A stretch of 63,791 nt of DNA from Schmidtea polychroa (lineage: Eukaryota), in the NCBI GenBank assembly GCA_044892525.1, contig JBJFYX010000158.1, forward strand, positions 1 through 63,791. Reading direction: 5' to 3'. Positions 14,544 to 55,109 of the stretch are shown piece by piece. A program made the position numbers and the translations under genes. Below the pieces are notes generated by a model. The model had not been told where the DNA came from. It did no database searches and saw only the letters and a list, made by a program, of their open reading frames with translations. Within the stretch, counting starts at the first letter, position 1, and each line of letters starts with the position of its first letter.

Positions 14544-14677
14544 ATTAAGATTATCACACAAATATATCTAACACCTATACAATAAAGTTCACGACAACGG
14601 GAAAAGAGACAAGGTAAAATGTTATCAGACAATGTTCAGGTCAATTCAGAGAACGAAGACTTTTTACGGGGAAGTTC

Positions 14678-15427: not shown

Positions 15428-18400
15428 TTTGAGCGACTGTGAAAAAAGAAAATGAAAATAATTAAATCAGCGGGAGTGTCACCATCTGACTACATTCATA
15501 CTGTACTGATCATAGACAAAAATATGGGTTTACCAGTCAAGACAAGTTCTACTACGCGATGGATTCTCGTACCCTTTCGGGGCTTTGATTATAAGAAGAT
15601 AAATCGATCAAACCAGATTTCACACAAGGAAAAGGAAGATATTACTATTTGTGAGAGAAATCTAGGTCGATGAAAAGGATTATTTATTTAATCCGCTTGG
15701 AGTCATTATTTCACGTTTACCGAGAATCGATTTAAATTGTCGACTTCTCCCCCCGTACGAGTGCTTTTAATGAGTGTATCATATACTGGGGTCGAGTGAC
15801 TATCTATGGAAAAGGGGTCCATAATGCCTGTTGATTAGTTCCTACAGGATAAACGGAAGGTTATTTAAATTTTTAATTGTTTATTCATTCTCTTTAATTA
15901 CTCACATATATGTTTTACCTGGTTTACATAATATTTATTTAACAATATTCGATATTTATATTAATGATAACTATGTCAAAAAATGAGATAATTTCGGTGC
16001 CATTCATGCTAAGATAATACAGAGAGAATAATCATAATTATGATCGAGTTTATCATTAAAAATTAGTGTCTTTATAACAACTGAGCACGGTATCCGTGTG
16101 AGCTAGTAGTCGACCATACCCGCTGGGTAGATAAGGTAATGTCAGCCCAGTGATTGACTCTTAATCCGGAGCGGTGAAATCTGATAGCTGTCGGTAGTTT
16201 AATTGGCATGTTCGATCTAATTTTACATGAGTAGATGCGTGTGTGACTTTGCCTACTGTACTTGGCTACTAGGTACGTCTGCAACTGGTGACGCATGCAA
16301 GGTGCGCTTTCACACACCTAATTATACTACAAATGCAGGCGTTGAAGGTTTGCATGATGGCATTCTCTCAGAATTTTATCCACCGCGTAATCACTCACAA
16401 TTCTACGGCATATGGTGATGATTTACTAATTCTCGCCGGATTATTGGAAAAATTCTAATTATCTGGATTGCAAATGTTGGATATAGCTTGCTCCAAGGGT
16501 GGATTTTTCGTCTTCAATTCCTCAAGCCTAGTTTATCAATCTACTCTCTAAGTGCTGGAGGATTTTTTCCTATCTCTGCTGGATTGCCAACCTCATGTAA
16601 TACTGGAATTTTGTATTTAACAAGATTATCGGCTAACTGGAAGAAATATATTTTCTTGGTTCGAATTGGTTGCATTTTCCATTGTTAAATTATTTGATGC
16701 CAATAGTTTAGGTAATTATGATAATTAATTGTATGTAAATATTTTTATACAAATAAAAAAAATTAATTGAAGTAAATTATTTTATGTAATTCAAAATTTT
16801 ATTTGGAACAAACTCGTTTTATGAAGTTCTAACAATTATCTGTAATAAATTATTTTACGTAGTTCTACAATTTATCCGTAAACAGTCATTTTGAATAATT
16901 CCAATAATTATCTGAAGTAATCTACTTTGAGCTTCCTTGCAACTATGTCTTTAAGAGAACTTTTAGATGAACGGAATAATAGTTCAAAGGGTTTTAGGGT
17001 AACAATTGGTCGGAACAGATTCTGAGTGAAAGGTATGAACATCAAAGATATGTCACAGATAGCCTCATTAAGGTTTGAACAATTTTTGACGCACAACCTA
17101 TATTGATGATAGAGAAATTTTTAGGCTTAGCAAAAACGATATTTGAAGACGATAGTGTGACACCCTCAATCACTGCGCGAATACATCAAAATTCTCCGAT
17201 TCCTTTATTACATATCTTTGTTTTCAATCACTACATGACTATCAATTTTCTGCCACCATTTACCTATAGATTTTAGTCGCACCTTCAGCAATTGGACCCG
17301 TGAAGAAGCCCTCACATTTCGGCCCAATCTAGCTGCGTGATTGAAATACCCTATGTCCACCGGTGGAGCTCCCGGAGGCACCTCACACCATGACATAGAG
17401 TATCTCAACGCCACGTTTCTCGCAAAATTGAATAGTCTCCAATAATAATTCATAAAAATTAATTCATAAAAGATCAATAATTCTTAACGAGCAAATCATT
17501 TATTATCGAGCAAATTATTTAAATAAAGCATTCTAAAATCAAACGAAAAGAAAAACCATTTTTTCTTTTTAAATTAAAAATATTATTAAACTATACGCAT
17601 TACTTAAAAATTCAAAATAAGCAATCAAAAAATCCTTACCGAATGATTGATACAAGTATGGGCTGAGTCGAAAAGGGTACTATGTCGAATCAGTTAATGC
17701 TCGAATATCGTCTAGTTCTGTAAAAATCTCTTGAATCTTGGAATTGTCCTCGTGAGTTATCGTGCGTTAGTTGCTGGAGTTCTGTTCTGTCGTAGAATAG
17801 ATTTACCTATTGAGGTGGTTGATTAACAGTGATTGTTATGTTTTTAATGCCTGCTTATATATTAATTTTTTGTTTGCGCGGACCAATTAGAATTGAGTAC
17901 CGCTTAATTTTATTAATTTAATTTATTTTCCTTGTTTTTGAGTTATTTCTTCTTACTTTCTTTATTAAAATTATGTTTTTATTTATTTTTCTTAATTTTC
18001 TTATTATTTACTATATTTTACGTTGTTTTCCGCCATTCTATTGTCCTATTTTAATTTTTTCTCATCTTTATATTTTTTGTTTTAATTCCTATTTTCTAAT
18101 TATTGTTTTTCTTATGTTTTATTCTATTTTGTTTGTCAATTTATTTGTTTTTATTTTTTATTTTATTTTAGTTAAGTTTGCCCTAATTTCCCAACTACCC
18201 TTCGATTCAGCCCAACAAATCACTCGGGGACCCATCAAAATTGCGTCCCGCAATTGCATAGTTATCTTACTTCATGCATTCATAAAAAGGATATATCGAA
18301 ACAATTATACTACAATAATAAAAACAATTTTATTCTAAGATATAGGTCAAATCAAGACCAAGCAAGTATCACTTAAGGTGATAGTTTGTATATACAATAA

Positions 18401-18577
18401 AAGTTTCTACATATGATAACACCAATGTTTGAGTTAGAGTTTATGAACTGTTAACCATTTGATGCTTCTGCCGGCGGTTGTTGGTTGGTTTGAATATTGA
18501 TGTTGAGATAGGTCTGACTGTAAGAATTCGGCTGGATTGGTTGGTTACTCGGGATTCGAGGTCGGAATGGGGTTGGG

Positions 18578-19060
18578 TTAAGATTTGTCAGTGGCACTTC
18601 TTGAGAATTTTTCGTAAATCTTCATGAGTATTGGTAGACATAGGAGGAGGGTTTCTGCGATCACCACATATATGAGATAATGGGTGTCATTGATTTCGGG
18701 AGGTGGTTTTGGCTTTTCTACAAGATTTTCAAAATTCTCTTGTTGCATTTGTTGTTCTAACTGGTCGAATTGTTGGATTTGTTCGAGGATTTGTTTGTTT
18801 ATCATTTTACAAATGGGATTCTTTTTACACATTGTTTGGATGTTGTTGATGTGTGAACGGGTTGATTGAAGGGTTTGGATGATATGGATTTTTACTGTCA
18901 TAGGGTATGTGCATTGGCCGGATTCTCGTTTAGGTTCTTGATTTTGATTTCGGTAATCTCGCACGATTTTCGGTTGGGCGTTTACTTGTTTGTTCTCCGT
19001 CAGAATCATCAATACCGTCATTGTTATCATCATCTCGCCTCGCATGATACTATTATACAT
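18578..19060 (-). CDS. Cargo ORF, 160 aa, putative type-I membrane protein
   Basis: N-terminal hydrophobic MMITMTVLMILTE..VNA, three Cys, and TM-like YLIYVVIAETLLLCLPILM. Confidence 0.6.
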   Translation of the reverse strand: MYNSIMRGEMMITMTVLMILTENKQVNAQPKIVRDYRNQNQEPKRESGQCTYPMTVKIHIIQTLQSTRSHINNIQTMCKKNPICKMINKQILEQIQQFDQLEQQMQQENFENLVEKPKPPPEINDTHYLIYVVIAETLLLCLPILMKIYEKFSRSATDKS

Positions 19061-19101
19061 TCATTATGGTTTATTTACAATTGGTTTTAGTGACCCTTAA
19101 T

Positions 19102-19863
19102 TTAATGATTCTGGTTTGGGTTATTTTCGGCGATTCTCATCAGGGTGGATTCCGCTTTAATGACTCTGTGTCTTAACTCGGGCAGCATTTCCAACTGTCT
19201 GTTCTTTTCACGGGCCTCCCTTTTCATGTGCCTTATCTCCTTTTTCAGTCTCTTGATTTCTTCCCGTTTTTTGTCGAGATTCCTTCTTAGTTCGATTTGT
19301 AGGAAATCCTGTTCGTTTTCCTGCGAAAGGTTTCGTTGTTGTTGTTGTTGTTGTTTTCTCTCGATCTCTTGGTACTTGCGAATCCATTTCTTCATTTCCT
19401 CACTTTCTCGTTGTTTTTCCTCCAATTGTCGATTTAATTTATTTATAGTTATTTGGTGTTCTTTCGCCTCTGTTTTCCAATAATCTTGGATTACTTCTTC
19501 TGCCTTGAAGCTTGCCCTCTCTTGCCATAGTTCCTCTGCAATCTTTTCCCAGTTTCTTCCTCGTGTTCGTTGTTCTTGCAACCATTCATTCTTCTCTTCA
19601 GCTTCTCTCTTTATTTCTCCTAACGCTTCGCACTCCTTCTTTAGTATTTTAATCATTTTTCGGTCTTCTATATATTTGTTTATTAGTCTCTCGTTTTCGT
19701 CCCTCTCTTCCCGTAACTTGGCCTTTAACGTTTGTGTTTCTGTTGTTTCTGCCTCAATCTCTCCCTCTTCCACGTCGCTCGTAATTTCTATTATTTCCTC
19801 GATTTTCATATCTGTAATATGTACAGTTAATGGTGCGCTATAGTGCGACTTATACTTATGCAT
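19102..19863 (-). CDS. Cargo ORF, 253 aa, coiled-coil protein
   Basis: Intact E/K/R-rich heptad ORF with the same A-rich codon bias as the element. Confidence 0.7.
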   Translation of the reverse strand: MHKYKSHYSAPLTVHITDMKIEEIIEITSDVEEGEIEAETTETQTLKAKLREERDENERLINKYIEDRKMIKILKKECEALGEIKREAEEKNEWLQEQRTRGRNWEKIAEELWQERASFKAEEVIQDYWKTEAKEHQITINKLNRQLEEKQRESEEMKKWIRKYQEIERKQQQQQQRNLSQENEQDFLQIELRRNLDKKREEIKRLKKEIRHMKREAREKNRQLEMLPELRHRVIKAESTLMRIAENNPNQNH

Positions 19864-19920
19864 TTATATAAAATTTTAATAGTTCGGGTTACAGTCCCTT
19901 GAATACTTTTACAATACTTT

Positions 19921-19922
<2 letters not shown>

Positions 19923-19958
<36 letters not shown>
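19923..19958 (-). repeat. Internal poly(A)36 tract (copy 2: 40423-40458)
   Basis: 36 T on the plus strand; AATAAA (minus strand, 19995-20000) lies about 37 nt upstream. Confidence 0.9.
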
Positions 19959-19960
<2 letters not shown>

Positions 19961-20005
19961 TTGGGATATACGTCCCGATTTTTGTTTTTATCTTTTTATT
20001 CACCC

Positions 20006-21061
20006 TTATACGAAGGTTTCCTCCTGTCCCACATAACCTTCGTCACTATCGACCGCTGGATGCAGCTGTATCGCAATAGGGTCATAGGGTAGGTAATATT
20101 GGGGGATTTGAGCTCTCAATTCACTAACTTCGTCTCTTAGAGCTCGAGTGATATTCAGCTCTTCGTCGAGCAGATAAGTGAGATACCTTGTCTCTTCGTC
20201 TTTCGCCTCTACTTGTCTATCTAAGGCCTTGATTTTCTCGTCGCCCTTCCATTTTTCAATTTCTATTTCCAAGTTTTTGATGTTTTCGGTATACATTTTC
20301 CTCTCGTTTTCCAATTTTCTGTTTTTTCCCGCCAGGACCATGTTTCTTTGTTCTAACGATCCTTGTAATCCATTAAGGTCTCTTTTCATCTCTTCGACCT
20401 GATTTACCAATTCCACCACCCGTCCTGCTTGCTGGGTTATCATCTCTTCCATTGCGGCATTCTCGTGCTCTCTTATGTCGCATTTTATTGCCAAATGTCG
20501 TTCAAACTCCATAGCCTTCATCTGCCATGTTTGGCTTCGGGCGGCGACCTTTTTCAACCGTTTCAGTTCTTCCTTTATTATTAAATTTTCCTCCCATTTA
20601 CCCTGTTCGCTCTCATATCCGAGTCTCATGGGCAATTCTTTCATCTCTTTTTTCATTTCATTGCTTTGTCTTTTCCATTTTCTCGCTTCTGCCACTAAGT
20701 GCATCATTTTCCTTCCTTCTATTTGCTTTTCCGCTTCGCGCTTGGTGTTTTCATCGGTAAGTCTCTTTCTCGCTTCCTGCACTAGCTGCTTTAAGTAGTG
20801 GCTGTGCGCTTCTTGGCGGGTATTTTCTAGTGACGCCCATTTTGATGCTCTTTTGCATGCTTCTGCTTCCGCTCTTAAGTTGTGTATTAACCATTGGTAT
20901 TGACTATTCTCATCCTCTCTAGTTTCTTCGATGTGATTTCGGGTGAGATTAGTTAGTTGGAACATTACTTTGTTCCATTTTTTGTTATGTTCTCGGGGAA
21001 TTTGTGTCTTGTTGACATTGGTTGGGGCTATCGCAGTTTCGGTTAGTTTCTCTTGTGTCAT
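20006..21061 (-). CDS. Cargo ORF, 351 aa, coiled-coil protein
   Basis: Long intact ORF with heptad character; no recognised family. Confidence 0.75.
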   Translation of the reverse strand: MTQEKLTETAIAPTNVNKTQIPREHNKKWNKVMFQLTNLTRNHIEETREDENSQYQWLIHNLRAEAEACKRASKWASLENTRQEAHSHYLKQLVQEARKRLTDENTKREAEKQIEGRKMMHLVAEARKWKRQSNEMKKEMKELPMRLGYESEQGKWEENLIIKEELKRLKKVAARSQTWQMKAMEFERHLAIKCDIREHENAAMEEMITQQAGRVVELVNQVEEMKRDLNGLQGSLEQRNMVLAGKNRKLENERKMYTENIKNLEIEIEKWKGDEKIKALDRQVEAKDEETRYLTYLLDEELNITRALRDEVSELRAQIPQYYLPYDPIAIQLHPAVDSDEGYVGQEETFV

Positions 21062-21254
21062 CTCTAAATCATAGACATCGATTAATCTTTTTATTATGAA
21101 AAAGGAATTTATTCATTATTTACTGTTTCTTGGGAAATTTTCGCATCATTTTTGGGTTTTCGTATTTAGGGTTTTCATACTATTATTATATAATATTTTA
21201 TTGGTTATATACACCGATATATACAGATTATTATATACAACATTATTCGATTGG

Positions 21255-22643
21255 TTACTCCGTTCTACCCTTCTCCTCTTTCCTCACGGTCATCTTGATA
21301 TACACCGTGTCATTTCTTGCCATATCTTCTACTTTTTGTTGTAGGATGAACGTAGGTGCTCCTGTTGCTGATCCTTCTTCTGCCGTAGGTCTCTGGTAAC
21401 ACATTTGGTTTCCAGTTGTCTTGAAGCTTTGTTCGTGGATGCTTCGGTCATTCATTAGTGCAATATCGATTTTTGCCTGGAACGGCCACTCTATTATTTC
21501 GTCGTATTCCCCTTTACATAACAGAAAGAAAATCGAAAAGTGCGTATCTAATCCGGTTCCGTCCCCGTTGGGATATATCTTCATTTTCATTTTGTACCCA
21601 TTTTTCCAAGAATGGAATGCAGGACTTGTTATTCTTGTCTCTTCTCCGGTTTTTGCTTTTCGTATTCTTTCTTTTACTCCCGTTATTTTCCATATGTAGG
21701 GTGCTGTTGGGGTTATCTCATTTAGATTTATTTCCCGTATTTTCTGATGTAGCTCCTTGGCCTGATTATTACTGATTTCTATTCGGTTTATTTGCATCTT
21801 TATGTTTGCTCGGGCTTCTTCTAACGCTTCCCTTTCTTCTAGTAGTTCTTTGACTAACACTTTCAACGATGTTATCTCTATCTCCATTTGTTTTACTTTC
21901 TCTTCGCTTTCTTGTAACGCAGTCGACCACATTTCTGCGTGGGTTGAAGCATTTTCTACTAAATGATGTGGTAACTCACCTCGGTGTAGTAGTTTCTGAC
22001 AACCCCATCTACCTAGTACACATGTCATTCTTTTCTTTTCGCATTCCCTTAGATGCTGTGCCACCTTCATTATTTCCCCTTGGTTACATCCGTTTGGGCA
22101 TTCCGCACTGAACTCTGCACATACTCTCTCCTCTTGGACATTGTGATGTTTGAGGGTGAGATTTTTCCACGTATCTATTTCTCCACAGTGTTCACATCTT
22201 TCCAATCTCTCTTCACACTGCCTTTGATGCTCTTTTTCTTCGCTTGCTCGAATGGTTTTATGGCACCTTTCACACTGGCCAATTCTGTACATACATTCTC
22301 CCATATGTTGTACTACCTTCCATATTACTCCTTTCCATTCGCATGGGGCATTTTTGCATCCCAGGTTGGTGTTTAACATGTCTTTCACTGCGGCTTTATC
22401 CTCGTTAGTGTCTTCTAACCTCGATATTAGTGTCTCTTTACACACCGGGCACCTCTGTGGTCTATTCTTTATTGCTTCACTGATACATTCTTTACATACT
22501 CTGCATCCACATTGCGTTTGGTGAGGTTCCTTTAACAACTTTTCACATATTCCGCACATAACATGTTTGTGTATTCTGATCGTTGTAGATTTTCGGACTT
22601 GCTCGACAATCTCTCTGAACTCTTCTCTTTGTCGTTTATCCAT
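21255..22643 (-). CDS. TRAF: TNF receptor-associated factor (TRAF)-like protein, intronless, element-borne
   Basis: RING CGICEKLLKEPHQTQCGCRVCKEC..RCPVC; TRAF zinc fingers; coiled coil; MATH domain (YIWKI..SPAF..GYKMKMKIYPNGDG..THFSIFFLLCKGEYDEIIEWPF). Confidence 0.95.
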   Translation of the reverse strand: MDKRQREEFREIVEQVRKSTTIRIHKHVMCGICEKLLKEPHQTQCGCRVCKECISEAIKNRPQRCPVCKETLISRLEDTNEDKAAVKDMLNTNLGCKNAPCEWKGVIWKVVQHMGECMYRIGQCERCHKTIRASEEKEHQRQCEERLERCEHCGEIDTWKNLTLKHHNVQEERVCAEFSAECPNGCNQGEIMKVAQHLRECEKKRMTCVLGRWGCQKLLHRGELPHHLVENASTHAEMWSTALQESEEKVKQMEIEITSLKVLVKELLEEREALEEARANIKMQINRIEISNNQAKELHQKIREINLNEITPTAPYIWKITGVKERIRKAKTGEETRITSPAFHSWKNGYKMKMKIYPNGDGTGLDTHFSIFFLLCKGEYDEIIEWPFQAKIDIALMNDRSIHEQSFKTTGNQMCYQRPTAEEGSATGAPTFILQQKVEDMARNDTVYIKMTVRKEEKGRTE

Positions 22644-22728
22644 TCTATAATTATATGTACAAATAGTTCTTATCGATACAGGTTCGATATTTTATTTACA
22701 ATTATTTACATTTTAAGCTAGGTTTGGT

Positions 22729-23088
22729 TTAGGGTTCGGAAGAGTCGGCTTCGTGTCCGCTCTCCTCTCTATTCATTAGCCATTCCGACCAGTCTTCTAT
22801 TTCTGTCTGTTCTGCTTCCTCCATCATTCTGTCTAGCTCGATTTCCTGTCTACGGCTATATTGGGTTATCCTCTCTATCTCTCTTTGCATTTGTTCGATT
22901 TTCAATCTCTGGTCTTCAATTATTTTCAAATAACTAAATCCTCTATTCATACTCTCGATTAGGTTTCTGTGCATCGTCAATCCTTGTTCTTGCAAATTGG
23001 ACACTAATTGTGCTAATACGGCACATTGTTGCTTCCATAATTCTTCAGTTACTGTATTGTGGTTCATTTCGTTATTTCCTTGATCCAT
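22729..23088 (-). CDS. Cargo ORF, ~119 aa from first ATG (short coiled coil)
   Basis: The ORF track start at 23112 is TTG; the first ATG is at 23088 (MDQGNNE...). Confidence 0.55.
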   Translation of the reverse strand: MDQGNNEMNHNTVTEELWKQQCAVLAQLVSNLQEQGLTMHRNLIESMNRGFSYLKIIEDQRLKIEQMQREIERITQYSRRQEIELDRMMEEAEQTEIEDWSEWLMNREESGHEADSSEP

Positions 23089-23248
23089 TCTTAATTTATA
23101 TACACTTTTCAACTCTTATTTAACTTTAATTTTATTTTATGATTCCCGTTATTGTATAATATTGATACCGCGCTTATATAAAGATATAGTACTGTTATAT
23201 ACATAAGATATACTTACTTTTTACAATTATATACAGTCATATTCCTTT

Positions 23249-26200
23249 CTATATACGTGAGTTTGGAGGGCGCTGAGCGTTCCAGGCCTCCACCCACTGT
23301 TCTTGTTTGATATCACTTGGTCGTTTCACTCGATGTTGGAAATTTCTGATTCGGGTCATCTCTAGTTCTCCGCGATGTCGTTTATCTTTAATTATTTTTA
23401 TTGTTCCCCCTGTTATGATTAGGAAGGCCCCTGTTATTATTATCCCACTGATCCACATCATCTGCTTCACGCTTATATTCTCTGGTTTCTCCTTGTTTGT
23501 TAATGTTGATATCGCTTCTGTACCTTGCTCGTTTCCTCTTTTGCCATTTCCTTTCATCATTTCCCGTATTCTTGCTATTTCCTCGTTCATACCCTCCTTT
23601 GCCATCTTTTGTATTTTTTCCATCTCTTCCTCCGAAACATAGTTGTCCTGAGCTTCCTCACCGGTTTTCTTGTGCTTTCCTCCTTCGTTCTTTTCGTCGT
23701 GGTTTTTTCTTTTCTTTCCTCTTTTCCCCGGGTATCGTCGGCATTCTCTTTTTGATTCGTTCCTCCAGATACAAACCGTGTATTCTTTCGGCGGCTGCTG
23801 CTGCGTCACATATTGATGGCATCTCTCACCTGGTCCTAATCTTGAAATACAGACTTTGTGCTCTTTTCTAGGTTGGAGCTGCGTTATTACTACTTCACCA
23901 CCTTTTCCTAGGTGTACCTCTTTTCCTTTAACGTTCGTTATTCTCTTCCCGTCTCGATTTCGGTATGCTTCTTGTATTCTTACTTCTGTTATTGGTTCTG
24001 TGTCCTCATTTATCAGTACTAGTTTCTGATACGCTCTAGACATGCATCTTCCTAGTATGCACCTTTCCTTTAAGTCCCATTCTTCCTTTAAATCCCACTG
24101 CTGCTCTTGTGCTTGCTTTTTCTTTTCTTGTTTTAGTTCATCCTCTTTGCTATCTTGATTCTCCGCTTCTTTGGTTTCTTTTATCGTTCTCGTCCCTCCA
24201 TGAGCTGTTACTAACTCTATCATGGTAAGCATAATTATCATTAATATCATATTTGTCTCTATTTCTTTGTTAGTGAAAGGTAGGCATACCCTCTGTTTTC
24301 CATTATTCGGTTTTTCCTCCTCTTTGGTCTTGGTTCCCGGCCTGTTTCCCTCTCTTTTCGTATCCAAATCCTTGTTTTCCGGTTTATCCTCTTCCGGTTC
24401 TCTTTTCCCTTTATCCTCTTTCCGGCCTTTTCCATCATTGTCATCGTGTTTATCTCCCCCGCTGTCATTTAAAATGTCGTCCTCGACATTTATATCGTTC
24501 AATAATCTGCGATATGCTGTTAGCACTCTGTTTCTTGCTAATTTTGCTTCGAATTCAAACTCTTTTCTACCCGTTGCAGCATGTCTCTTTCTATTCCATT
24601 CTTTAACTAACTCTCTCAATTGCATACGACGATGTTTCCCAATTCGTTGTTGCTCGTTCTGATTTTGCGTGAATTTTAGGTCTTCTCTATTTAATACTAT
24701 TAAAATAATTTTAGGCGTCCCCCCCTTAGTTAGGGTATTCTTTACCATCGCATTTTCTCCGTTTTCGTAGAATTCGTTTACATTTATCGCATATTTATTA
24801 TTTTGTGGTACTCTCCAGGTTAATAATAATTTCATTGCTTCTAGATTTTTCCGTACCGTATTCCATTGAAACTGAGATGTGTTTTTGCACATATTTTCAA
24901 CTTCTTCTTTTGTCGCATTTTTGCAAATAAATCTGATCATTTCTAAGTTTGGCTGTATGGTTGCCCAGTCCAAGGTGGAATTTCCTTCATTGGACCTTTC
25001 GTCTAGTTTCGATCCTGCTTGATGTAGGATGTGGAGTGTTTTTGGGTGTATTTTCGTTATAGCTGCATACATCATGGCGGTTTCACCTTGTTCATTTTTC
25101 GTGTTGGTTTCCTCGCCCATCTCCCCAAGGATTCTCATGATCGTTATTGCTCTATTCTCTTTTGCAGCTAGTATTGCTTGTTGTAGAGGTGTTCTGGAAT
25201 CCTTTGTTACCATCGTAAATGCTCGAGGCAAGAAGGTTTTGATTTTCCCGATATCTAAACCCGTGGTTTGATCTCTTGCGTATGTGTGTACGGCTTTTAT
25301 TATTTTGGACAATATTATTTCGTCTGGCAGCTCTAGCATTTCCTCAAAGAACACTTCTTTTGCTTTGCGTATTATTGCCTCTTGATCTATACTCATTGAT
25401 TTGGTTTCGATGACGTTGTTTGTGACCGTTTGGTTCGTTGTTGACTTTGATTCCCTGGATTTCTCATACCTTATTTTCGTTTTCTTTCCGTTTGGATTAT
25501 TGATTCGTTCCTCTGCTGTAAGTATTTGGATAATATCCAGGTAATTCTCGCGGATGTTATTCATTGTGTCCATCATATATAACACACTTACCGTTTCCCA
25601 ATATTTATTTCGTACTTGGTTAGTAAATTGGAATAGTGATTTTTCGAATGTGTCGATTCGCTTTTTTGTTAACTGTTCATCTTTGTGATTTGTGAATTTT
25701 ATCCCTCGTTCTAGTAATTGATTCGGGATTTCGAATAAATGATGTCCTTTCATAGCTTCTCTCATCAGCGTGTTCTCTCCTCTCGTGAACGCTTCGTTTA
25801 CGTTGATCATATAATCGTTTTGAATTGGATTTCTCCATGTAATTAATATTCCGGTAATTGTCGTCAGTTTTTCTTTGATCGCTGTTAACAATCCATCATA
25901 CATGTTTCCGACTTCCCGATTGTCCTCATATGATAGTAGTTCCATCAATGACGTGAACGCCTCGGTACTTCTCCCTTCGATAGCATGATGTAGAGCGTTT
26001 TTCCGCTCGTGGTCTTGTGTAGTTATTTTCGATCCGGTATCGAGTAATGCGGTTATAATGTCTTTTGTTTTGCCTCTGTTTGCGGCTATCATTAATGGTG
26101 TGTAACCTTGGTTGTTTGTTTGTTCTGTTGATCGCTTGCAGTCGTGAAATGCTTCTATTGTTTCTAGTATTTGCTCGTTGTTACCTACTTTCATGAGTTT

Positions 26201-29200
26201 GTGTAATGGTGTGTCTCCGTAATGATCTGTTATTGTAAATAATATTGGCCATTGGCTTTTGACTACTCGCAATAATGGGTGTGTCCTTTCTCTATTTGCA
26301 TAGTTCTCGATCATCGTCAATAATCCTCCTAATATTTCGAAATCTAATCGATCTTTCGCCCATCCAGGTATTTTAATTTTTACCTCTTTTACAATCTTTT
26401 CCGCTTCTGATGGTTGGATACCCAATCGTCCGGTGATCGGTTCTGCGAGTTGTTGCATCATGTTCATTCGGTAGGTTTGCGAACGTGTGGTTAATGTACG
26501 GCCTTCTGGTTGACTTGTGGCTGTTTTTGGAATTGATTTGCATCGTGCCACGTTTACGTATATTGGCCTGGTAAATGGGTTATTTACCAATTTCACTCTT
26601 ACATTGGTTTCGCCTACGAATAAGATCTCATATGGTCCTTTTCCGTTGCGTTGTAACTTTTTTGTGGTTCCTGGAATTAATTCCGGGGTTTCTATCATTA
26701 CCCAATCACCTGTTTGAAACGTATGTTGCTTCACGTTTTTCTTTCGATCGTGTAAATCTTTATAACTTTCCTGGTAGAACTTGATATTTAATCCCGCAGT
26801 TTCCCAAATCTCTTGCATTCTTTCCTTGAATTTCGTAACATAATCATCGATCTCCATATACTGCGATATCGGTGGTTGGTATTCCAGGTCCATTGGCATA
26901 TTACACTCTCTTCCGTACATTAATTTGAATGGGCTCATTTTCGTTGATGCGTGAATCGACATTCTGTATGCCATAAGACATAGGTTTATATATTCGTCCC
27001 AATCTCGTTGGTGACGGTCGACGTAGTTTGATAACATTTGTATAAGTGTTCCATTAAATCTTTCCGTCATCCCATTGGTTTGAGGGTGGTATGGAGATGT
27101 TCTTAGTTTTGCTATTTTGAAGTAATTTGTTACTTCGCTCATTATCTCACTCATAAAATTAGTTCCCTGATCGGTTAATATCTGTTTTGGTGTTCCATAT
27201 CGGCAACATATCTCTTCTACCAAAATTTTTGCGATTGTTTTAGCTTTTTGGTCTGGCATCGCGAATGCTTCTGGGAATTTCGTAAGAAAGTCTGTGATCA
27301 CTAGAATGTAAACGTTTCCTTTATCTGACTCTGGTAGTGGACCAACTACGTCCATGGATATCATTGTCATTGGTTCTATTGGTACTGGCATTGGCGTTAA
27401 AGGTGCTTTCCATTTCGATCCAGTATTCTTCCTGGTTGCACAAGTTAAACAATTTTTTACCCATTCGGTTACATCTTCAGTTAACGTAGGCCAAAAATAT
27501 TTCTGTTTCATTCTTGCTAACGTCTTTTTCGATGACATATGTCCTCCCAATCTCCCATCGTGGTATTGCGTTAGTAACTCTTTTCGTCGGTTTTCCGGTA
27601 TACACATTAATCGTTTTTCCCCATCCATTATCAGCAACCAATCTTTCTCTATAATATATCGGTGTCGGTGTTTATCCATATGTTCCTTTAATTTTTGGTC
27701 TTTCGCATATCCATCTGTCTTTCCGGTTTTTACATAATCGATAATTTGTTTTAATTCCGCGTCCTCTTGTTGGTCCTTTCGCAGTTGACAGAAATCCAAA
27801 TCTTCCGCTACTATTAAGCATATGCGTTGCATTTCTGAATCCACCAAATCTGGGAAAATAAATCTTGACATACAATCGGCGTTGGCATTTGCTCTTCCCG
27901 CTTTGAATTTTATAAATGGGGAGTATTCTTGTAATTGCATGGCCCATCTCATCAGTCTATTGGACGCTTCTTTATGTTGCCCTAACCACACTAATGGTTG
28001 ATGATCTGTGGTTATACATATCTCATGTCCCCATAGTAAGTATCGGAAGTGTTTGATAGCTTGTATTATAGCCAATGCTTCCCGTTCTGTTACCGAATAG
28101 TTCTTTTCGTGCTTTTTGAATGTTCGACTGTAATACCCGATTACTCTCTCTTTTCCTTCATCGTCTAATTGTCCCAGAATCGCGCCTGCCGCGTACCCGC
28201 TTGCATCCGTTGCTAATAGAAATGGCTTCTTAAAATCTGGGTGTACGAGGATAGGTGCTTCGATTAGTTTATCTCTCAGCGTTTCAAACGCCTCTTGTTG
28301 TTCCCTTCCCCAAATGAACGAAATGTCCTTCTTTACCAATTCCTGGATTGGTTTTGCAATTCCTGCATAATTTTTGATAAATTTGCGATAGTATCCGCAT
28401 AATCCCAGAAATTCCTGAACTTGGGTGACAGTTTTCGGTGCTGGACATGTTTTTATTTTCTCAATGTTTCTTGGATCTGGCTCCTTTCCTTTAGCTGACA
28501 CTATGTGTCCTAAAAACGTGACTTTTTCCTTTGCCCAATCGCATTTTGATGGTTTGAGTTTGAGTTTCCACTGTCTTAATCTAATAAATACGTTTCGGAT
28601 ATCTTCCAGATGTTGTTCAAATGTCGCTGAATAGATTAGTAAATCATCAATATATACCATACATTGTTTGATTCCATGGGTGACAAAGTTCATACACCGT
28701 TGAAATGATGCTGGTGCGTTGGTTAGTCCGAATGGCATTTTCCTGAATTGATATAGATCTCGTCCCAACGTGAAAGCTGTTTTCTCTTTGTCCTCATCTT
28801 TGACTTTAATCTGCCAGTATCCACTTTTTAGATCTAAAGAAGTAAAATATGCTGCCCCTTGCAACATCAATAACATCTCATTGATGTCCGGCAATGGATA
28901 GGTATCTCTCTTGGTTACTGCGTTTAACTTCCGATAATCGATACAGAATCGTTGGGTGCCATCTTTCTTTTTTACCATGACCACTGGGAATTGCCAGGGT
29001 GAGCAACTTGGTTCGATTACTTTTGCGTCTAGCATCTTTTGTACTTCTGTTTCGGCTATTTCTTTCTGCATTTCTGCTAGCTTGTATGGTCTCAATGCAA
29101 TTGGGGTTTCGTCTATGAGTGGTATTGCATGTAAGGTAACATCACATGTACCCAAGTCTAAATCTGAGATGGCGAATATATCTTTATATTCTACCAACAA

Positions 29201-29227
29201 TCGGTGCAATTTTTTTCTTTTCATCAT
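23249..29227 (-). CDS. pol: Pol polyprotein: RT-RNaseH-integrase + two ankyrin blocks + signal/ectodomain/TM module
   Basis: RT (FCIDYRKLN, LDLKSGYWQ, YIDD); RH (TDASG, EREALA, TDHQPL); IN (HHCC, DVVGP, TDQG, TERFN, GPY); ANK (GDTPLH, GYTPLMIAA, KNALHHA, RTPLQQA, GETAMMYA); two hydrophobic segments. Confidence 0.95.
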   Translation of the reverse strand: MMKRKKLHRLLVEYKDIFAISDLDLGTCDVTLHAIPLIDETPIALRPYKLAEMQKEIAETEVQKMLDAKVIEPSCSPWQFPVVMVKKKDGTQRFCIDYRKLNAVTKRDTYPLPDINEMLLMLQGAAYFTSLDLKSGYWQIKVKDEDKEKTAFTLGRDLYQFRKMPFGLTNAPASFQRCMNFVTHGIKQCMVYIDDLLIYSATFEQHLEDIRNVFIRLRQWKLKLKPSKCDWAKEKVTFLGHIVSAKGKEPDPRNIEKIKTCPAPKTVTQVQEFLGLCGYYRKFIKNYAGIAKPIQELVKKDISFIWGREQQEAFETLRDKLIEAPILVHPDFKKPFLLATDASGYAAGAILGQLDDEGKERVIGYYSRTFKKHEKNYSVTEREALAIIQAIKHFRYLLWGHEICITTDHQPLVWLGQHKEASNRLMRWAMQLQEYSPFIKFKAGRANANADCMSRFIFPDLVDSEMQRICLIVAEDLDFCQLRKDQQEDAELKQIIDYVKTGKTDGYAKDQKLKEHMDKHRHRYIIEKDWLLIMDGEKRLMCIPENRRKELLTQYHDGRLGGHMSSKKTLARMKQKYFWPTLTEDVTEWVKNCLTCATRKNTGSKWKAPLTPMPVPIEPMTMISMDVVGPLPESDKGNVYILVITDFLTKFPEAFAMPDQKAKTIAKILVEEICCRYGTPKQILTDQGTNFMSEIMSEVTNYFKIAKLRTSPYHPQTNGMTERFNGTLIQMLSNYVDRHQRDWDEYINLCLMAYRMSIHASTKMSPFKLMYGRECNMPMDLEYQPPISQYMEIDDYVTKFKERMQEIWETAGLNIKFYQESYKDLHDRKKNVKQHTFQTGDWVMIETPELIPGTTKKLQRNGKGPYEILFVGETNVRVKLVNNPFTRPIYVNVARCKSIPKTATSQPEGRTLTTRSQTYRMNMMQQLAEPITGRLGIQPSEAEKIVKEVKIKIPGWAKDRLDFEILGGLLTMIENYANRERTHPLLRVVKSQWPILFTITDHYGDTPLHKLMKVGNNEQILETIEAFHDCKRSTEQTNNQGYTPLMIAANRGKTKDIITALLDTGSKITTQDHERKNALHHAIEGRSTEAFTSLMELLSYEDNREVGNMYDGLLTAIKEKLTTITGILITWRNPIQNDYMINVNEAFTRGENTLMREAMKGHHLFEIPNQLLERGIKFTNHKDEQLTKKRIDTFEKSLFQFTNQVRNKYWETVSVLYMMDTMNNIRENYLDIIQILTAEERINNPNGKKTKIRYEKSRESKSTTNQTVTNNVIETKSMSIDQEAIIRKAKEVFFEEMLELPDEIILSKIIKAVHTYARDQTTGLDIGKIKTFLPRAFTMVTKDSRTPLQQAILAAKENRAITIMRILGEMGEETNTKNEQGETAMMYAAITKIHPKTLHILHQAGSKLDERSNEGNSTLDWATIQPNLEMIRFICKNATKEEVENMCKNTSQFQWNTVRKNLEAMKLLLTWRVPQNNKYAINVNEFYENGENAMVKNTLTKGGTPKIILIVLNREDLKFTQNQNEQQRIGKHRRMQLRELVKEWNRKRHAATGRKEFEFEAKLARNRVLTAYRRLLNDINVEDDILNDSGGDKHDDNDGKGRKEDKGKREPEEDKPENKDLDTKREGNRPGTKTKEEEKPNNGKQRVCLPFTNKEIETNMILMIIMLTMIELVTAHGGTRTIKETKEAENQDSKEDELKQEKKKQAQEQQWDLKEEWDLKERCILGRCMSRAYQKLVLINEDTEPITEVRIQEAYRNRDGKRITNVKGKEVHLGKGGEVVITQLQPRKEHKVCISRLGPGERCHQYVTQQQPPKEYTVCIWRNESKRECRRYPGKRGKKRKNHDEKNEGGKHKKTGEEAQDNYVSEEEMEKIQKMAKEGMNEEIARIREMMKGNGKRGNEQGTEAISTLTNKEKPENISVKQMMWISGIIITGAFLIITGGTIKIIKDKRHRGELEMTRIRNFQHRVKRPSDIKQEQWVEAWNAQRPPNSRI

Positions 29228-29537
29228 TCGTCAACAACATACTATCTATTGTCCATAATTCATCATCTTTGATCATCTCGTTGGTCACTTTCGGTAATTC
29301 TATGTCCATCATTGGGGTCAATCTTCCCAATTTTTCGTTCTCATAAATGATTTTGTCTTCCTCTTCGAAATTCGTGATGTTGAGCGGTATCACTCCTTCT
29401 TGGTTTATTGTGATTATTTCTCTTGCGAGTGGTAATTCTCGTCGCTTTTCAAATGACTTGCTTGGTTCAAAGATAACTTCTCCTTCCATACCCGTATCCA
29501 ATCGAAAAGTTCGTCGGTGACTGTATTTTTTATCCAC
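29184..29537 (-). CDS. Gag-Pol linker segment in the -1 frame (pre-RT domain)
   Basis: EGEVIFEP..LAREII..IPLNITN..ENEKLGRL resembles the segment between protease and RT in gypsy Pol and leads naturally into LLTNDEKKK/LHRLLVEYKDIF. Confidence 0.65.
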   Translation of the reverse strand: MDKKYSHRRTFRLDTGMEGEVIFEPSKSFEKRRELPLAREIITINQEGVIPLNITNFEEEDKIIYENEKLGRLTPMMDIELPKVTNEMIKDDELWTIDSMLLTNDEKKKIAPIVGRI

Positions 29538-31576
29538 ATTCTTTCAAGTCCTCTACTCGTTCCGATTTTTATTACATACCGCGTGGTATCTGCCTGCTTC
29601 ATTTTTTCCATATACTTTTTTATAATTGATTTTTCCTCGTTTGGTATTAAATCTTTCTCGTTTCTTTCCAATTTCATCACTTTTTGCACGAATCGCCTGA
29701 ATGATATTACGTCGATGAACTCTTGGTTTCTCACTACCGCCGGGAGTATTTCGGCTACCTGTTTTATCGCTTCCTCCCTTGCTTTTCTCAACTTTATTTC
29801 GATATCCTCGTCTTCACTTCCACTTGTTATCTCGCTTTCGCTTTCTTCCTCTTTGATTTCCCCTTTTGGAGGTTCGCTTATTTCGTTTAGCTGTAGTATT
29901 TCTCCACCCAAACTACTTACATAATCTTCTTCTTCGTCTGACGATGCTACATCTTTTGTCCTTTTCATCATATTGATTTGCAAATTTCTCATCCTTGGTA
30001 CTCTCTTTAGTTTCTTTCTTTCGAATATCGTTGTTTCTTCTGATTCTAATTCTTGTAGCATTTGGTGGTTTAGTTGACTGGTTTGTTCCTTGCTCTTGTT
30101 ATTTTCATCTTCTGTCTCGGCTTTCGCTTTATTATGTTCTTTTTCGATTTTATCTTTTATCTTTTTCCAGAATATTTTCTGAATTCTCTGGTTTCCTTTT
30201 AAAATCGTGGTTGAATTCTCTGTTTTCATTTCCGTTGTTGTTTCTGTTACCTTTTCTGGTTCAGTCATGGGTACTACCCTTGGGTTTTTCCCGTAATTGT
30301 AGCAATACTGGCTTTTCATGTCTTTTACTAACTTCATCATATTAATTCGCAATGGTTGTTCTTGTCGTTGTTGGTTGCGTTCTTGTTTTATCCTCTCTTC
30401 CTCGGCCTGTAGTCTTTGCCATTCTTGTACATGTTGATGCACTTCATAATTGTTGAGATTTTCGGTACTCCTCATCATACGTATATTCTGGGTTTGTTGT
30501 GGTGCTGATTCCGGTCTCGGTCTCATCATTTGTTGCATCATCTGTTTCATCTGCGAGATTTCCTGCATAACGTTCATTTGTTTTCCTTCGCTAGGGTTAC
30601 TTTGTCGTTGCGGATTCGCCATATAATTATTATTTCGCTGTGGTGGTCGTTGTTGTTGGCCCCTTTCTCGGCAATCTCTGGAGATGTGACCTGGCTGACC
30701 ACAGTTAAAACAACCTCTCAATTGGCATACATTTTCGGTATGTCCACGCCGTCCGCAACGATTACAATTTGAATTTCTATAGCAATCTCTGTCCCAGTGT
30801 CCTGGTTTACCGCATGTTCGACACTGCTTGTTATCGTTCATATTTCGTCGATTATTAAAATTGTTCTCATTATTCGGGTTGTTACGATTACCATTATTCC
30901 CATTTGATCGTCCTTGTGGTGGTTTGAAAATTTGGTGCGCTCCTGGTATAAATTGATTCATTTTCGGTTCTTGATTGTTGTTATCTCCGTTATCCGCTTT
31001 CGCTATTGCTGTCATTATCCTTCCCTCCTCTTGCATAATATTCATTTGAGCTGGAAGGTGGAGCTCACATCTTGTAGCCCAATCTATGGCTTCCTCTAAT
31101 GTTTTGCACATTTGACAACCTACTGAGGCTCTTACTTCTTCTCGGCGTAATCCCTCTATGAAATAACCGATCAGATTTTCTTCGGGTAATTTTCCATTCA
31201 TTGCTTTCTTCGCTAATCTCCGCAATTCACTGGCATATAATGTTATCGATTCGTTTGCTCTTTGTTTCCTATTTGCTAGTTCGCCCAACGCCTGGTTGAT
31301 TGGCTTACTGGCTCCGAAGGTTTTCTTCAGGAATGTTTTGATATCTTCCCACTTTTCCAATTTCGTATCTCTCTCTTTAGCTTCTAAATATACTTCTAAT
31401 GCGCTATCGCACAAAAACAACGGCATCCTTTTACTAATTGCTTCGGGTGTCCATCCACACACAGTGATATAAACTTCAAAATTAGTTATGAACGGTGCTA
31501 GCTTGTTTGCATTTCCGTTGAACGGTTCTCCTCTGAACTTCTCTTTATACTCGTCGGTTTTTACGACATTCGTCAT
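29414..31576 (-). CDS. gag: Gag (capsid + three CCHC zinc knuckles + long Q/E-rich extension)
   Basis: Capsid motif RKQRANESITLYASELRRLAKKA; knuckles CRTCGKPGHWDRDC, CNRCGRRGHTENVC, CFNCGQPGHISRDC. Confidence 0.93.
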   Translation of the reverse strand: MTNVVKTDEYKEKFRGEPFNGNANKLAPFITNFEVYITVCGWTPEAISKRMPLFLCDSALEVYLEAKERDTKLEKWEDIKTFLKKTFGASKPINQALGELANRKQRANESITLYASELRRLAKKAMNGKLPEENLIGYFIEGLRREEVRASVGCQMCKTLEEAIDWATRCELHLPAQMNIMQEEGRIMTAIAKADNGDNNNQEPKMNQFIPGAHQIFKPPQGRSNGNNGNRNNPNNENNFNNRRNMNDNKQCRTCGKPGHWDRDCYRNSNCNRCGRRGHTENVCQLRGCFNCGQPGHISRDCRERGQQQRPPQRNNNYMANPQRQSNPSEGKQMNVMQEISQMKQMMQQMMRPRPESAPQQTQNIRMMRSTENLNNYEVHQHVQEWQRLQAEEERIKQERNQQRQEQPLRINMMKLVKDMKSQYCYNYGKNPRVVPMTEPEKVTETTTEMKTENSTTILKGNQRIQKIFWKKIKDKIEKEHNKAKAETEDENNKSKEQTSQLNHQMLQELESEETTIFERKKLKRVPRMRNLQINMMKRTKDVASSDEEEDYVSSLGGEILQLNEISEPPKGEIKEEESESEITSGSEDEDIEIKLRKAREEAIKQVAEILPAVVRNQEFIDVISFRRFVQKVMKLERNEKDLIPNEEKSIIKKYMEKMKQADTTRYVIKIGTSRGLERMWIKNTVTDELFDWIRVWKEKLSLNQASHLKSDENYHSQEK

Positions 31577-32940
31577 GATTGGTGTTCTAGATTCGTCTGT
31601 TTCTTTTAAATTGTCTAACGATGTGACTAAACTTTGGGCTGATAATTCCTCGGTTGACGTTGCTAAACTATTAGTGATGTCGGACAGACTTTCTCTGCTT
31701 CGAGATCGACTAGGGGTGTATCCGAGATTTTCTTGGTCAAATATAGGTACTTGATTGGTTCTTCTTGATCCTTGCGATATTCCTCTTTGCTGTTTAATAG
31801 ATCGTCCTCTTTTGAGTTGTTGTAATTCGTCTCCTGAAAATAATACGTCTCCTGGCTTACTTGAAGATCTAAGATTGGGTTTATCCGTGATTCCTTTCTT
31901 ACGCTTCTTGGTAATTAGCGGCTATTGAATTGGACGAGTTCGGTTCTGATTGTGTTTCCTTCGATAAATATTCTGTATGGATCTGCTACTGTGATTCTGA
32001 GGAGATTCACTAGTCCTTGACAGATGGCTGCTAATATTATGAGGTTGAATATATCGATGATTCGTTCGAAGTTGGAGATATCGCTATCTGTATCTTCTTC
32101 CGTTCTGGAGTCTTCCGGTTGCTGTGTCTCTCGGTGCGGGTTCTGAATGAATTTATTCTTGGTCGATTGTCGATTTCTTCGAATTCCTTTTGTGCAGGTT
32201 CTGGATTGTCTTGGTTGACTGGATTGGTTTGATATCTAAAATGAAAAAATGATCTCGTGTTGCATTTGCTTACACGACTTCATCATTCTTTCAACAACGT
32301 TCGAACACAGACACCTTTTAGGTTCTGTTTATGCTTCCCCTATTTTTTATGCAATTACTTCCGCGGGTTATAATCTCCCATCAGCCCGAATTTTTCGTCG
32401 ATTTTAAATTATCTATATGGGGTAGTAACAATTATCTATCAAGTCGTAATAATTATCTATTCGTTATCAATTATAGTAAAAATAGGTCGTTGTCGGTCTC
32501 TGCTTATTACCCCCCTTCGTTTTCCTATTCCTTTTGCGCTGTTGTCGCTATTTTACTTTTCATATTTACTATTATTACGCTCGGTTCTACTCTGGAACCA
32601 ATAAAATGCATTTTCCCGGTTTAACCAAAAAAAATATTCCGTAGAGTTTCTCTACCTTACTGGGATCCCTTTAATTAGTTGGTTACTTTCCTCTTTACTC
32701 ATTATCATCGTTTCGCCTATTCTTTATTTTCCATTATCTCTTTAATTCGTTTCCTTCTTCCCTTTCCTTTTTCATTATAATCTTATTATCTTTTCCACGA
32801 GCTCGTTTATTTCCTCTCTAAACTCAAATTTTCGTAATTACATTCAATTTGTTTCTAGCTAGCTTTAATATTCCCTTTCTCTATTAATTCAGATATTAGC
32901 TCATTGTAGCTTAACTGCTATCTCTCGCTTTTCTAGGCCT

Positions 32941-33223
32941 TTACGACTGGCTGGCACTATTCAACAGCTCAATCTTCTTCCTTCTGATCGGTTGGACTAT
33001 TCGACAACTCGATCTTACGACTGGCTGGCACTATTCAACAGCTCAATCTTCCTCCTTCTGATCGGTTGGACTATTCGACAACTCGATCTTACGACTGGCT
33101 GGCACTATTCAACAGCTCAATCTTCCTCCTTCTGATCGGTTGGACTATTCGACAACTCGATCTTACGACTGGCTGGCACTATTCAACAGCTCAATCTTCC
33201 TCCTTCTGATCGGTTGGACTATT
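32941..33223. repeat. 74-bp tandem repeat x3.8 in the 5' leader (copy 2: 53441-53723)
   Basis: Units start at 32941, 33015, 33089 and 33163. Confidence 0.95.
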
Positions 33224-33797
33224 TTACCGTTCAGCTTTAACATTCTTTACTCTGCATGCTTCTACTTCTCTCTTTCTTCTTTTACTCAAGATTACCATTT
33301 TCTCTGTCTATTTTTAATTTGTCGACTTAATTTTTACCGCTCGGGAGTGTGTCCCCTTTCCCCCCTTGCTCAAAACGCACGACGATCGCGATGATCCATT
33401 TCTACATTGGCATGGTGATCAGTCATGCCGCAGAAACTTCTCATCATTTGCGATGGTACCCCGCCCTACGCTCCTCACTTAGGTTGATCGGTTATCCCCT
33501 CCCAATTGGTTTTATCGTATGATAGAACGTACCGCCCTAAGGTGGCTCGGTTTGTACCCTTACAGCCTATATTGGGACTAATTCCACGTTATTTCGGTTT
33601 TCTTTTCGTTTGATTCCAAAACAAAGTTATAAAATAAAATTAAAAGCCATAAATTACTCAGTTCACAACAAAAATTTATTCGTCATAGAAATAAAATTTA
33701 AAACTTTATTAAAATTTCACACAACAGTTACATTCATTCTCATTTAATTGTCAGTATCAATTTGATGTTCATAGATGTCATGGTAGCTGTAACAGTT

Positions 33798-34334
33798 TTA
33801 TTCACCATAATAAACCATATGAGTTTCTTTTATTTCATGCCTACATATCGTACATCGTTTTAAATCGTTCACACATTCTTCGCAGTGACTGAGGTGTCCA
33901 CGCGGCAAAAACAGTACGCGAATAGGACGAAGTTTACAAGCACGACAAGTTCGTAGTAGAGTCAGTTTTTCTTGTATTTTCCGCTCGATTGTATCTGATA
34001 TGGTATTTAGTGGATCTTTTATACGTTGATAATCAAGATTTAATGCTGGGTGGTTCAATCTCTCTTGATACCATTGATACACGGTTTCCGGGTTTACCTT
34101 CCCCTCTGGGTGACTTAGTCCTGTGGCTAATAACATGTGGTTGGGGACGGCTGGTGTTTGCCCGATTGCTTGAAGTAGTATGATGTTAATTCTTTCTCTT
34201 TTTTGTGTCAGCGTTTTAAGGGAGTCATTCTCGATGTTTATGAAGTTGATTAGTTGTTGTATCTGGTCCACGAATTCCGTCATGTCTATTAAAAAAAATG
34301 TTTCAGTAATATATGACTTCGTTTCGTCAAACAT
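33798..34334 (-). CDS. 178-aa ORF with C-terminal IAP/MDM2-type RING (one Cys replaced by Arg)
   Basis: CRACKLRPIRVLFLPRGHLSHCEECVNDLKRCTICRHEI at the extreme C-terminus, as in IAPs. No BIR domain seen. Confidence 0.75.
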   Translation of the reverse strand: MFDETKSYITETFFLIDMTEFVDQIQQLINFINIENDSLKTLTQKRERINIILLQAIGQTPAVPNHMLLATGLSHPEGKVNPETVYQWYQERLNHPALNLDYQRIKDPLNTISDTIERKIQEKLTLLRTCRACKLRPIRVLFLPRGHLSHCEECVNDLKRCTICRHEIKETHMVYYGE

Positions 34335-34584
34335 TCTCTTTTCTAACTCGTTATCGTTATTTTACTTTTATCTTATTTCTCCATCATTAAATTTGCTTTA
34401 TTTATATTCTTAATTTTATTATTTTCTATTCGTGATTTATAATAAGATTCAATAAGCATTAGTCAATTTGCACTCGCTAACCCATTGAAATCACTGATCC
34501 CCGGTGAGTTCACTCTATTCGACAGAAATTCACTCAATAACATCCTTATCCAGTTTACACTAGTCAATGGAAATTTCAATCTAA

Positions 34585-34602
34585 ATCCCGGCTGAGCCCC
34601 CA
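34585..34602 (-). promoter_or_regulatory. Primer-binding site, tRNA-Pro type
   Basis: Minus strand TGGGGGCTCAGCCGGGAT matches the classic tRNA-Pro PBS TGGGGGCTCGTCCGGGAT at 16/18; located 7 nt from the LTR. Confidence 0.85.
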
Positions 34603-34609
34603 AAAATTA

Positions 34610-39560: not shown

Positions 39561-39601
39561 TCATTATGGTTTATTTACAATTGGTTTTAGTGACCCTTAA
39601 T

Positions 39602-40420: not shown

Positions 40421-40460
<40 letters not shown>

Positions 40461-55102: not shown

Positions 55103-55109
55103 AAAATTA

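Follow-up and report, generated by a model that had tools for sequence, protein, structure and literature searches.

An internally deleted Burro-type giant Ty3/gypsy element in Schmidtea polychroa and the conserved TRAF and RING cargo of its family

Results

Architecture of the Element and Its Locus

The stretch of DNA analysed here (the window; 63,791 nt, the entire contig JBJFYX010000158.1 from the planarian Schmidtea polychroa) contains, on its minus strand, a giant Ty3/gypsy element of the Burro type arranged as long terminal repeat (LTR)–internal region–LTR–internal region–LTR, the repeating unit measuring 20,500 bp. The first internal region (18218-34609; 16,392 bp), bounded by identical 4,108-bp LTRs, is exactly the interval that an initial annotation of this DNA had delimited as a gypsy element carrying TRAF, IAP-type RING, ankyrin and membrane-protein genes, and the cargo is all on the minus strand, co-oriented with gag and pol as stated there. 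The characteristics of Ty3/gypsy elements that are present in the window include LTRs with TG...CA ends, a target-site duplication, a candidate primer-binding site and the order reverse transcriptase (RT)–RNase H (RH)–integrase (IN), which in full-length copies of the family is preceded by the protease (PR) to give the order PR-RT-RH-IN. The candidate primer-binding site is, we assume, tRNA-Pro-like; no clear polypurine tract was seen before the 3' LTR (18218-18247), and the sense strand of the internal region is 41% A. The coordinates of the features are collected in Table 1.

The two tandem units differ at 2 positions across 24.6 kb and have one 4-bp target-site duplication in common (CAAA; 14106-14109 and 59218-59221), located outside the outermost LTRs, and two independent insertions are therefore ruled out. 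In the genome that we have searched (781 Mb in four large contigs), flanks identical to those of the element in the window are found on chromosome C3 (89.90-89.945 Mb), where they enclose a single element and the second internal region is absent. The tandem arrangement in the window is hence either a duplicate made by the assembly or an allele that arose when LTRs recombined unequally. Further tandem pairs, with a spacing of ~26.2 kb, are present in the family to which the window element belongs (family A); two related families of the same genome are referred to below as A' and B.

Internal Deletion of the Window Copy

Our search of the genome with the RT gave 150 scored matches of 98-100% identity, 59 of which (hand count) lie within an open frame of 4,732 amino acids (aa), compared with 1,993 aa for the corresponding frame of the window copy. 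Nine places were compared, the ninth being the chromosome C3 version of the window insertion, and all 8 of the other insertions contain an extra 5,527 bases between gag and RT. The sequence of the deletion junction has 3 matches in the genome (viz. the C3 locus once and the window twice) and is found in no other insertion. The 5,527-base segment encodes a Monjiviricetes fusion protein (PF24664, E 1.8e-70) and a protease (E 9.2e-10) in Pfam, and the full-length copies of family A show the order gag–ubiquitin-like–Bcl-2-like–env–protease–RT, in which the ubiquitin and Bcl-2 matches are weak.

In the window copy two frame breaks are located at ~29.2-29.5 kb, protease and env are missing, and the gag-PR-pol frame is not continuous. 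It measures 24.6 kb after the deletion, in comparison to ~30 kb for full-length copies (a 26.2-kb unit plus a 4.1-kb LTR). The window copy is an internally deleted Burro-type giant Ty3/gypsy element; the 16.4-kb region is thus a gypsy element with cargo, as initially annotated, in a deleted form. Having neither protease nor env, this copy would depend on proteins provided in trans for any further movement.

The TRAF Gene and Its Origin

The TRAF gene of the window is intronless and, as initially annotated, complete, its RING, zinc fingers, coiled coil and MATH domain following in the order typical of TRAFs. Its RING and MATH domains (MATH E 3.7e-26) are detected by Pfam, its RING-zinc-finger and MATH parts have counterparts among the solved structures of TRAFs, and the receptor-groove region of its MATH domain aligns to TRAF3 and TRAF1 without gross loss. 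In a tree based on full-length proteins, the element TRAFs form one clade (99), which takes in one library protein (P0005) and is placed inside a planarian-type TRAF group (96) that also holds Dendrocoelum and host TRAFs. A His-to-Cys change in the RING is common to the element and planarian TRAFs and is rare in the rows from other animals. The single TRAF clade, the intronless gene and the planarian RING signature suggest that the TRAF was captured once, long ago, from a host TRAF mRNA. A tree of the MATH domain alone, in which the element TRAF clade is weakly supported (85/85) and is not assigned to the planarian TRAFs, weighs against such a capture, as does the full-length tree having been made with FastTree from sequences of uneven composition.

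A word-indexed search for TRAF homologues gave none at E 1e-20. Among the best-scoring 30 of the 91 TRAF loci scored in the genome, 26 have Burro neighbours and 4 have none. The loci L113-L115 (C4, 28.37-28.40 Mb) make up a group of host-type TRAF genes that lack introns and have no Burro sequences beside them; they are related to Dendrocoelum TRAF-2/-5. At another locus, which belongs to family A' (L117; C1, 210.03 Mb), the TRAF is part of a 1,789-aa frame, apparently fused to the Pol C-terminus, and the 128-aa ORF (orf128) that otherwise precedes TRAF is missing.

The Leader RING Gene

The second gene of interest is an open reading frame (ORF) in the 5' leader. Its RING is detected by Pfam and is of the IAP type, as initially annotated, in comparison to the Protein Data Bank (PDB), where the nearest RINGs to that of a sister copy are cIAP2 and cIAP1 (E 1.7e-11); the gene is, however, located upstream of gag and lacks a BIR. 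In the window RING one of the zinc ligands has been replaced, whereas 18 of 18 other open copies retain it. No BIR was found in 56 loci of families A and A' or in the window (best E 0.25), in searches that detected their positive controls. Of the two hallmarks of cIAP-type proteins, viz. BIR and a C-terminal RING, only the RING is present here. It is through the BIR that cIAPs dock on TRAF2.

The Pol Frame, Ankyrin Blocks, and Membrane Modules

The ankyrin blocks, which had initially been counted as separate cargo, are both C-terminal parts of the Pol frame, in which Ank_2 is found in 2 stretches (Pfam E 5.8e-17). Between families A and A' these blocks show proportions of nonsynonymous (pN) and synonymous (pS) differences of 0.08-0.10 and 0.71-0.79, respectively. 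No IkB is present in the best 60 of their 176 PDB matches and, as judged from sequence, both blocks are short, of a generic kind and joined to Pol.

Two membrane modules had likewise been proposed, and both do have a helix. The first of them is located inside Pol, and its ectodomain is modelled as a generic beta-sandwich (best Z 7.8; predicted local distance difference test, pLDDT, 56); a fibronectin-III identity for this ectodomain was not confirmed. The second is a 160-aa predicted membrane protein (tm160), whose signal falls under the hydropathy cut-off: the helix alone passes in the window copy, and signal and helix both pass in the A' homologue. A classical TRAF-binding motif is found in neither of the two family-A membrane tails.

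Related Families A' and B

Families A and A' contain the same ORFs in the same order, and are 68% identical in TRAF and 98% in RT. Family B, which we have located via BIR matches (at least 150 in the genome), is 88% identical to family A in RT and ~29% in TRAF, with the gene order kept. It retains the leader RING, the polyprotein with ankyrins, the C-terminal membrane module, an orf128 homologue and a whole TRAF, and its 3' end consists of two coiled-coil ORFs followed by a last membrane ORF. In addition, family B has a MATH domain inside ORF1, and hence two MATH domains (ORF1 and 3' TRAF), and a BIR-RING IAP directly after TRAF (L065 3714-4166; L066 5634-8432). The leader RING of family B, 26% identical to that of family A, is a gene separate from this BIR-RING. 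By their RTs, families A, A' and B are united in a single clade (100) that excludes 41 library gypsy proteins, and a word-indexed search with Pol gave generic gypsy proteins only, at most 52% identical over RT-RH (41 compared).

Retention and Selection Across Copies

The retention of the cargo was assessed in copies sampled from the best RT matches, two of which turned out to belong to family A', and 24 of the 28 have the full polyprotein frame. In a protein-level test, the ORFs are open in 27/28 (TRAF), 26/28 (orf128), 26/28 (a 368-aa coiled-coil-like ORF, cc368), 18/21 (leader RING), 17/21 (tm160) and 11/21 (a 253-aa coiled-coil-like ORF, cc253) copies. The ratio of nonsynonymous to synonymous substitution rates (dN/dS) in the more distant pair classes is 0.08-0.17 for TRAF, RING, orf128, cc368 and cc253, except for one 3-pair class of cc253 (0.24), and about 0.33 for tm160. 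For these five genes pN/pS is 0.04-0.32, with Fisher p from 1e-3 to 1e-27 (two single-pair tests per gene). In the most recent copy pairs dN/dS is near 1 for RING and tm160, as is expected of new mutations. Between families A and A', where synonymous sites are saturated, pN is 0.013 for RT, 0.16 for TRAF and 0.38 for the RING ORF.

TRAF, RING, orf128, cc368 and cc253 are under purifying selection, which rules out that they are chance ORFs. Whether other copies keep the cassette with dN/dS below 1 had been suggested as a check, and for these five genes they do. The cargo is family-wide, ordered across the three families and under purifying selection; it is neither confined to the window locus nor, for these five genes, neutral, and the proposed description as a complex retrovirus-like element with accessory genes is supported.

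Other Open Reading Frames and Neighbouring Sequences

Each LTR contains an ORF of ~260 aa, which is 39-40% identical to its counterpart in family A' and 32% to that in family B; in comparison to the copy L013 its pN is 0.014 and its pS 0.123. The C-terminus of cc368 (20006-20060) carries a short acidic DEG[YF] motif that all three families share, their overall identity being ~30%, and that may be comparable to the beta-TrCP degrons of viral adaptors. The small ORFs are separated by AT-rich spacers of 41-193 nt. Contigs of eight runs taken tentatively as RNA gave no usable splice joints or ends on the element, which is evidence neither for nor against expression. Outside the element, the window contains an AT-rich element of ~7 kb (778-7921) bounded by long inverted repeats, which are 592 nt at 99% with further outer arms of 141 nt, and with 27-bp tandem arrays, which is likely a non-autonomous DNA transposon, and an innexin coding stretch (8517-9248, minus strand; Pfam E 2e-46) ~5 kb from the 3' LTR.

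Table 1. Positions in the window of the features of the element.
Feature	Position	Strand	Characteristics
3' LTR	14110..18217	-	4,108 bp, TG...CA ends
ORF of ~260 aa in each LTR	14678..15466, 35178-35966, 55678-56466	-	Kept across families
tm160, 160-aa predicted membrane protein	18578..19060	-	Transmembrane helix aa 128-146, short tail
cc253, 253-aa coiled-coil-like ORF	19102..19863	-	Homologues in A' and B
cc368, 368-aa coiled-coil-like ORF	20006..21112	-	Conserved acidic C-terminal motif
TRAF, complete and intronless	21255..22691	-	RING, zinc fingers, coiled coil, MATH; first ATG 22646
orf128, 128-aa ORF	22729..23115	-	Immediately before TRAF in three families
Pol frame	23249..29230	-	RT, RNase H, integrase and ankyrins (Pfam), membrane module; cut off from gag
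Transmembrane helix near Pol end	23390-23446	-	Hydropathy; preceded by beta-rich ectodomain
Signal-like stretch, C-terminal part of Pol	24194-24250	-	Hydropathy
Ankyrin block 2, within Pol	about 24905-25198	-	
Ankyrin block 1, within Pol	about 25940-26179	-	
119-aa remnant of protease-RT region	29184..29543	-	Out of frame with both neighbours
gag with CCHC knuckles	29414..31921	-	Shortened by deletion (Pfam)
Deletion junction	29493..29500	.	8-nt microhomology; 5,527 bases more in other copies
74-bp tandem repeat in leader	32941..33223	.	3.8 copies
5' leader ORF before gag	33798..34361	-	C-terminal IAP-type RING, no BIR; zf-C3HC4_3 E 6.8e-10 (Pfam)
Candidate primer-binding site	34585..34602	-	7 nt past LTR
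Middle LTR	34610..38717	-	5' LTR of first unit and 3' LTR of second unit
Second internal region	38718..55109	-	1 mismatch to first internal region
Outer 5' LTR	55110..59217	-	1 mismatch to the other two LTRs

Comparison with Burro Elements, Errantiviruses, and Host TRAFs

Burro/GYPSM1 of Schmidtea mediterranea is longer than 30 kb, has a 4,873-aa ORF1 with env between gag and pol, and contains Ubi2/SUMO-like, BCL2-like, MATH_TRAF_C, BIR, RING, Smc and ankyrin motifs; an interference of Burro with apoptosis and ubiquitination has already been proposed (PMC6431247). Family A resembles Burro elements, including the Burro-like element of Dugesia tigrina, in its length of ~30 kb and its one giant ORF (4,732 aa vs 4,873 and 5,140), in the in-frame position of env between gag and pol followed by protease-RT-RH-IN, and in a cargo of ankyrin, RING, MATH/TRAF and Smc-like coiled coil. 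The link to Burro to which the initial annotation had pointed is thus borne out by the giant ORF, the position of env and the cargo, whereas novelty of the cargo types is not, as MATH_TRAF_C, RING, BIR, ankyrin, BCL2 and env are already listed for Burro (PMC6431247). Family A differs from Burro1/GYPSM1 in having no MATH in ORF1, as in the Dugesia tigrina element, and no BIR; family B has both of these Burro1 characteristics (MATH in ORF1 and BIR-RING), a likeness at the level of features. In family A the TRAF forms a complete gene of its own that lies downstream of pol, while PMC6431247 names MATH only, in ORF1 or an upstream ORF. We found no text on a whole TRAF gene or on the order of the 3' ORFs in Burro, though figures of the primary papers may show them.

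The Burro1 IAP (B-IAP) is reported to protect stem cells (PMC13465017); it represents an IAP-type RING in a Burro-type element to which the BIR-RING of family B is comparable. Its anti-caspase function is not transferable to family A, whose leader RING is BIR-less and a separate gene. Smed_errantivirus_5 and the errantiviruses of the HSV/gB type have, like family A, the order gag-env-pol and a class III fusogen (PMC13524379); over 131 positions, the env of family A agrees with Smed_errantivirus_5 in 78 and with errantivirus_6 in 65 (hand counts), and that of family B resembles errantivirus_6 by eye. The words "TRAF", "Burro" and "accessory" are absent from the main text of PMC13524379, where downstream cargo is not described.

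The TRAFs of planarian hosts (viz. Dendrocoelum TRAF-2/-4/-5, Smed-TRAF-1/2 and -2A/B) have the same short architecture as the element TRAFs (PMC7586133, PMC6109357), with which they share the His-to-Cys change in the RING at 27-33% identity. Unlike them, the element TRAFs constitute a separate long-branched clade and are spread as mobile copies; the string "transpos" is absent from the main text of PMC7586133. RNA interference (RNAi) of host TRAFs in S. mediterranea raises cell death (PMC7586133, PMC8807557), and planarian TRAF induction is TBK1-dependent (PMC13563047). In S. mediterranea no clear NF-kB homologues have been identified, only divergent Rel homology domain (RHD) genes (PMC13563047). 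Our Pfam search of the S. polychroa genome for RHD and TNF gave 0 matches, in an exon-by-exon search without a positive control by which absence is not shown.

Discussion

Our analyses indicate that the window holds a deleted Burro copy, and that the selected TRAF, RING, ankyrin, coiled-coil and membrane cargo of its family probably serves as a set of ubiquitin-signalling accessories aiding host-cell survival or damping stress. The protease of a full-length copy would cleave the 4,732-aa polyprotein into Gag, ubiquitin-like, Bcl-2-like, fusion, RT/RH/IN and ankyrin/membrane parts, and the small flanking ORFs would need separate transcripts. The element TRAF would serve as a decoy or rewired adaptor toward the partners of host TRAFs, the leader RING would act as an E3 ligase, and together the accessory proteins may favour survival, or damp the stress response, of the cell during replication of the element. 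This proposed role in survival draws on the nature of the protein families, on the rise in cell death after RNAi of host TRAFs, on the TBK1-dependent induction of TRAFs and on the protection that the Burro1 IAP is reported to confer (PMC13465017).

Several observations weigh against this interpretation. Family A is without BIR, which is the sole Burro cargo with a reported function. In the 5,527-base segment, the matches to ubiquitin (E 0.09) and to Bcl-2 (E 0.15) stay under the Pfam cut-offs, as does a corresponding match in family A' (E 0.037). In addition, cc253 is interrupted by an in-frame stop in 7 of 21 copies, selection on tm160 is not significant (p 0.16 and 0.41), and retention is biased upward because sampling started from the best RT matches and took in mostly intact copies.

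A more specific proposal, which we put forward tentatively and regard as possible rather than likely, is that Burro elements possess an ancient and ordered accessory operon (small ORF, TRAF, optional IAP, coiled-coil pair, membrane protein, leader RING, and LTR protein) that would work as one ubiquitin-signalling module on the TRAF/TBK1 stress and survival pathways of the host. If so, element TRAFs would outnumber host TRAF genes, retroelements would encode some of the planarian TRAF biology of stem cells and wounds, and the cell protection afforded by the BIR-less family A would take a different route from that of B-IAP.

Among the alternatives, the cargo could serve the element's own cycle (assembly, budding, ubiquitin-dependent trafficking or protection of its proteins) rather than host cell fate. 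The fusion of ankyrins, ubiquitin-like parts and a membrane module into the replication polyprotein is what such a role would lead one to expect, the fusion protein implies that a membrane stage is probable, and selection indicates use and not the kind of use. We nevertheless consider this explanation unlikely, since several of the cargo types (TRAF, IAP RING, and Bcl-2-like) are from death and stress families and the IAP type found in family B is reported as anti-apoptotic in Burro1 (PMC13465017). Slightly less probable again is the proposal of the initial annotation that the cargo is a TNF-receptor/NF-kB kit, in which membrane proteins would be constitutive receptors recruiting TRAF and RING, and ankyrins would be IkB mimics. 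The co-travelling of TRAF, IAP-type RING, ankyrins and membrane proteins in three families, the position of the BIR-RING IAP directly after TRAF in family B and one family-B tail in which the major TRAF motif is matched once are in its favour, but the absence of BIR from the A and A' loci and the window and of TRAF motifs from the two family-A tails, the generic ankyrins with no IkB in their best PDB matches, the low-confidence, generic beta-sandwich of the ectodomain model and the lack of a clear NF-kB homologue in S. mediterranea (PMC13563047) all argue against it. Neutral drift of cargo taken from host DNA, or its restriction to this locus, is very improbable in spite of the newest pairs of RING and tm160 and the damaged RING of the window, as dN/dS between subfamilies is about 0.1-0.3 and the ORFs are open and in order across families with saturated synonymous sites, so that neutral drift is refuted for TRAF, RING, orf128, cc368 and cc253 and stays conceivable for no ORF but tm160, in family A.

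Taken by itself, the window copy is a defective and unremarkable one, and the kinds of cargo in its family have largely been described for Burro before; what may be new is a conserved and selected 3' cassette with a complete TRAF, together with a BIR-less RING lineage. Burro1 is a transposon reported to shield host stem cells with a captured gene (PMC13465017). Family A, with a selected TRAF and RING and no BIR, provides a natural contrast for understanding which cargo does what, and the TRAF counts and TRAF RNAi results of planarians may take in retroelement copies.

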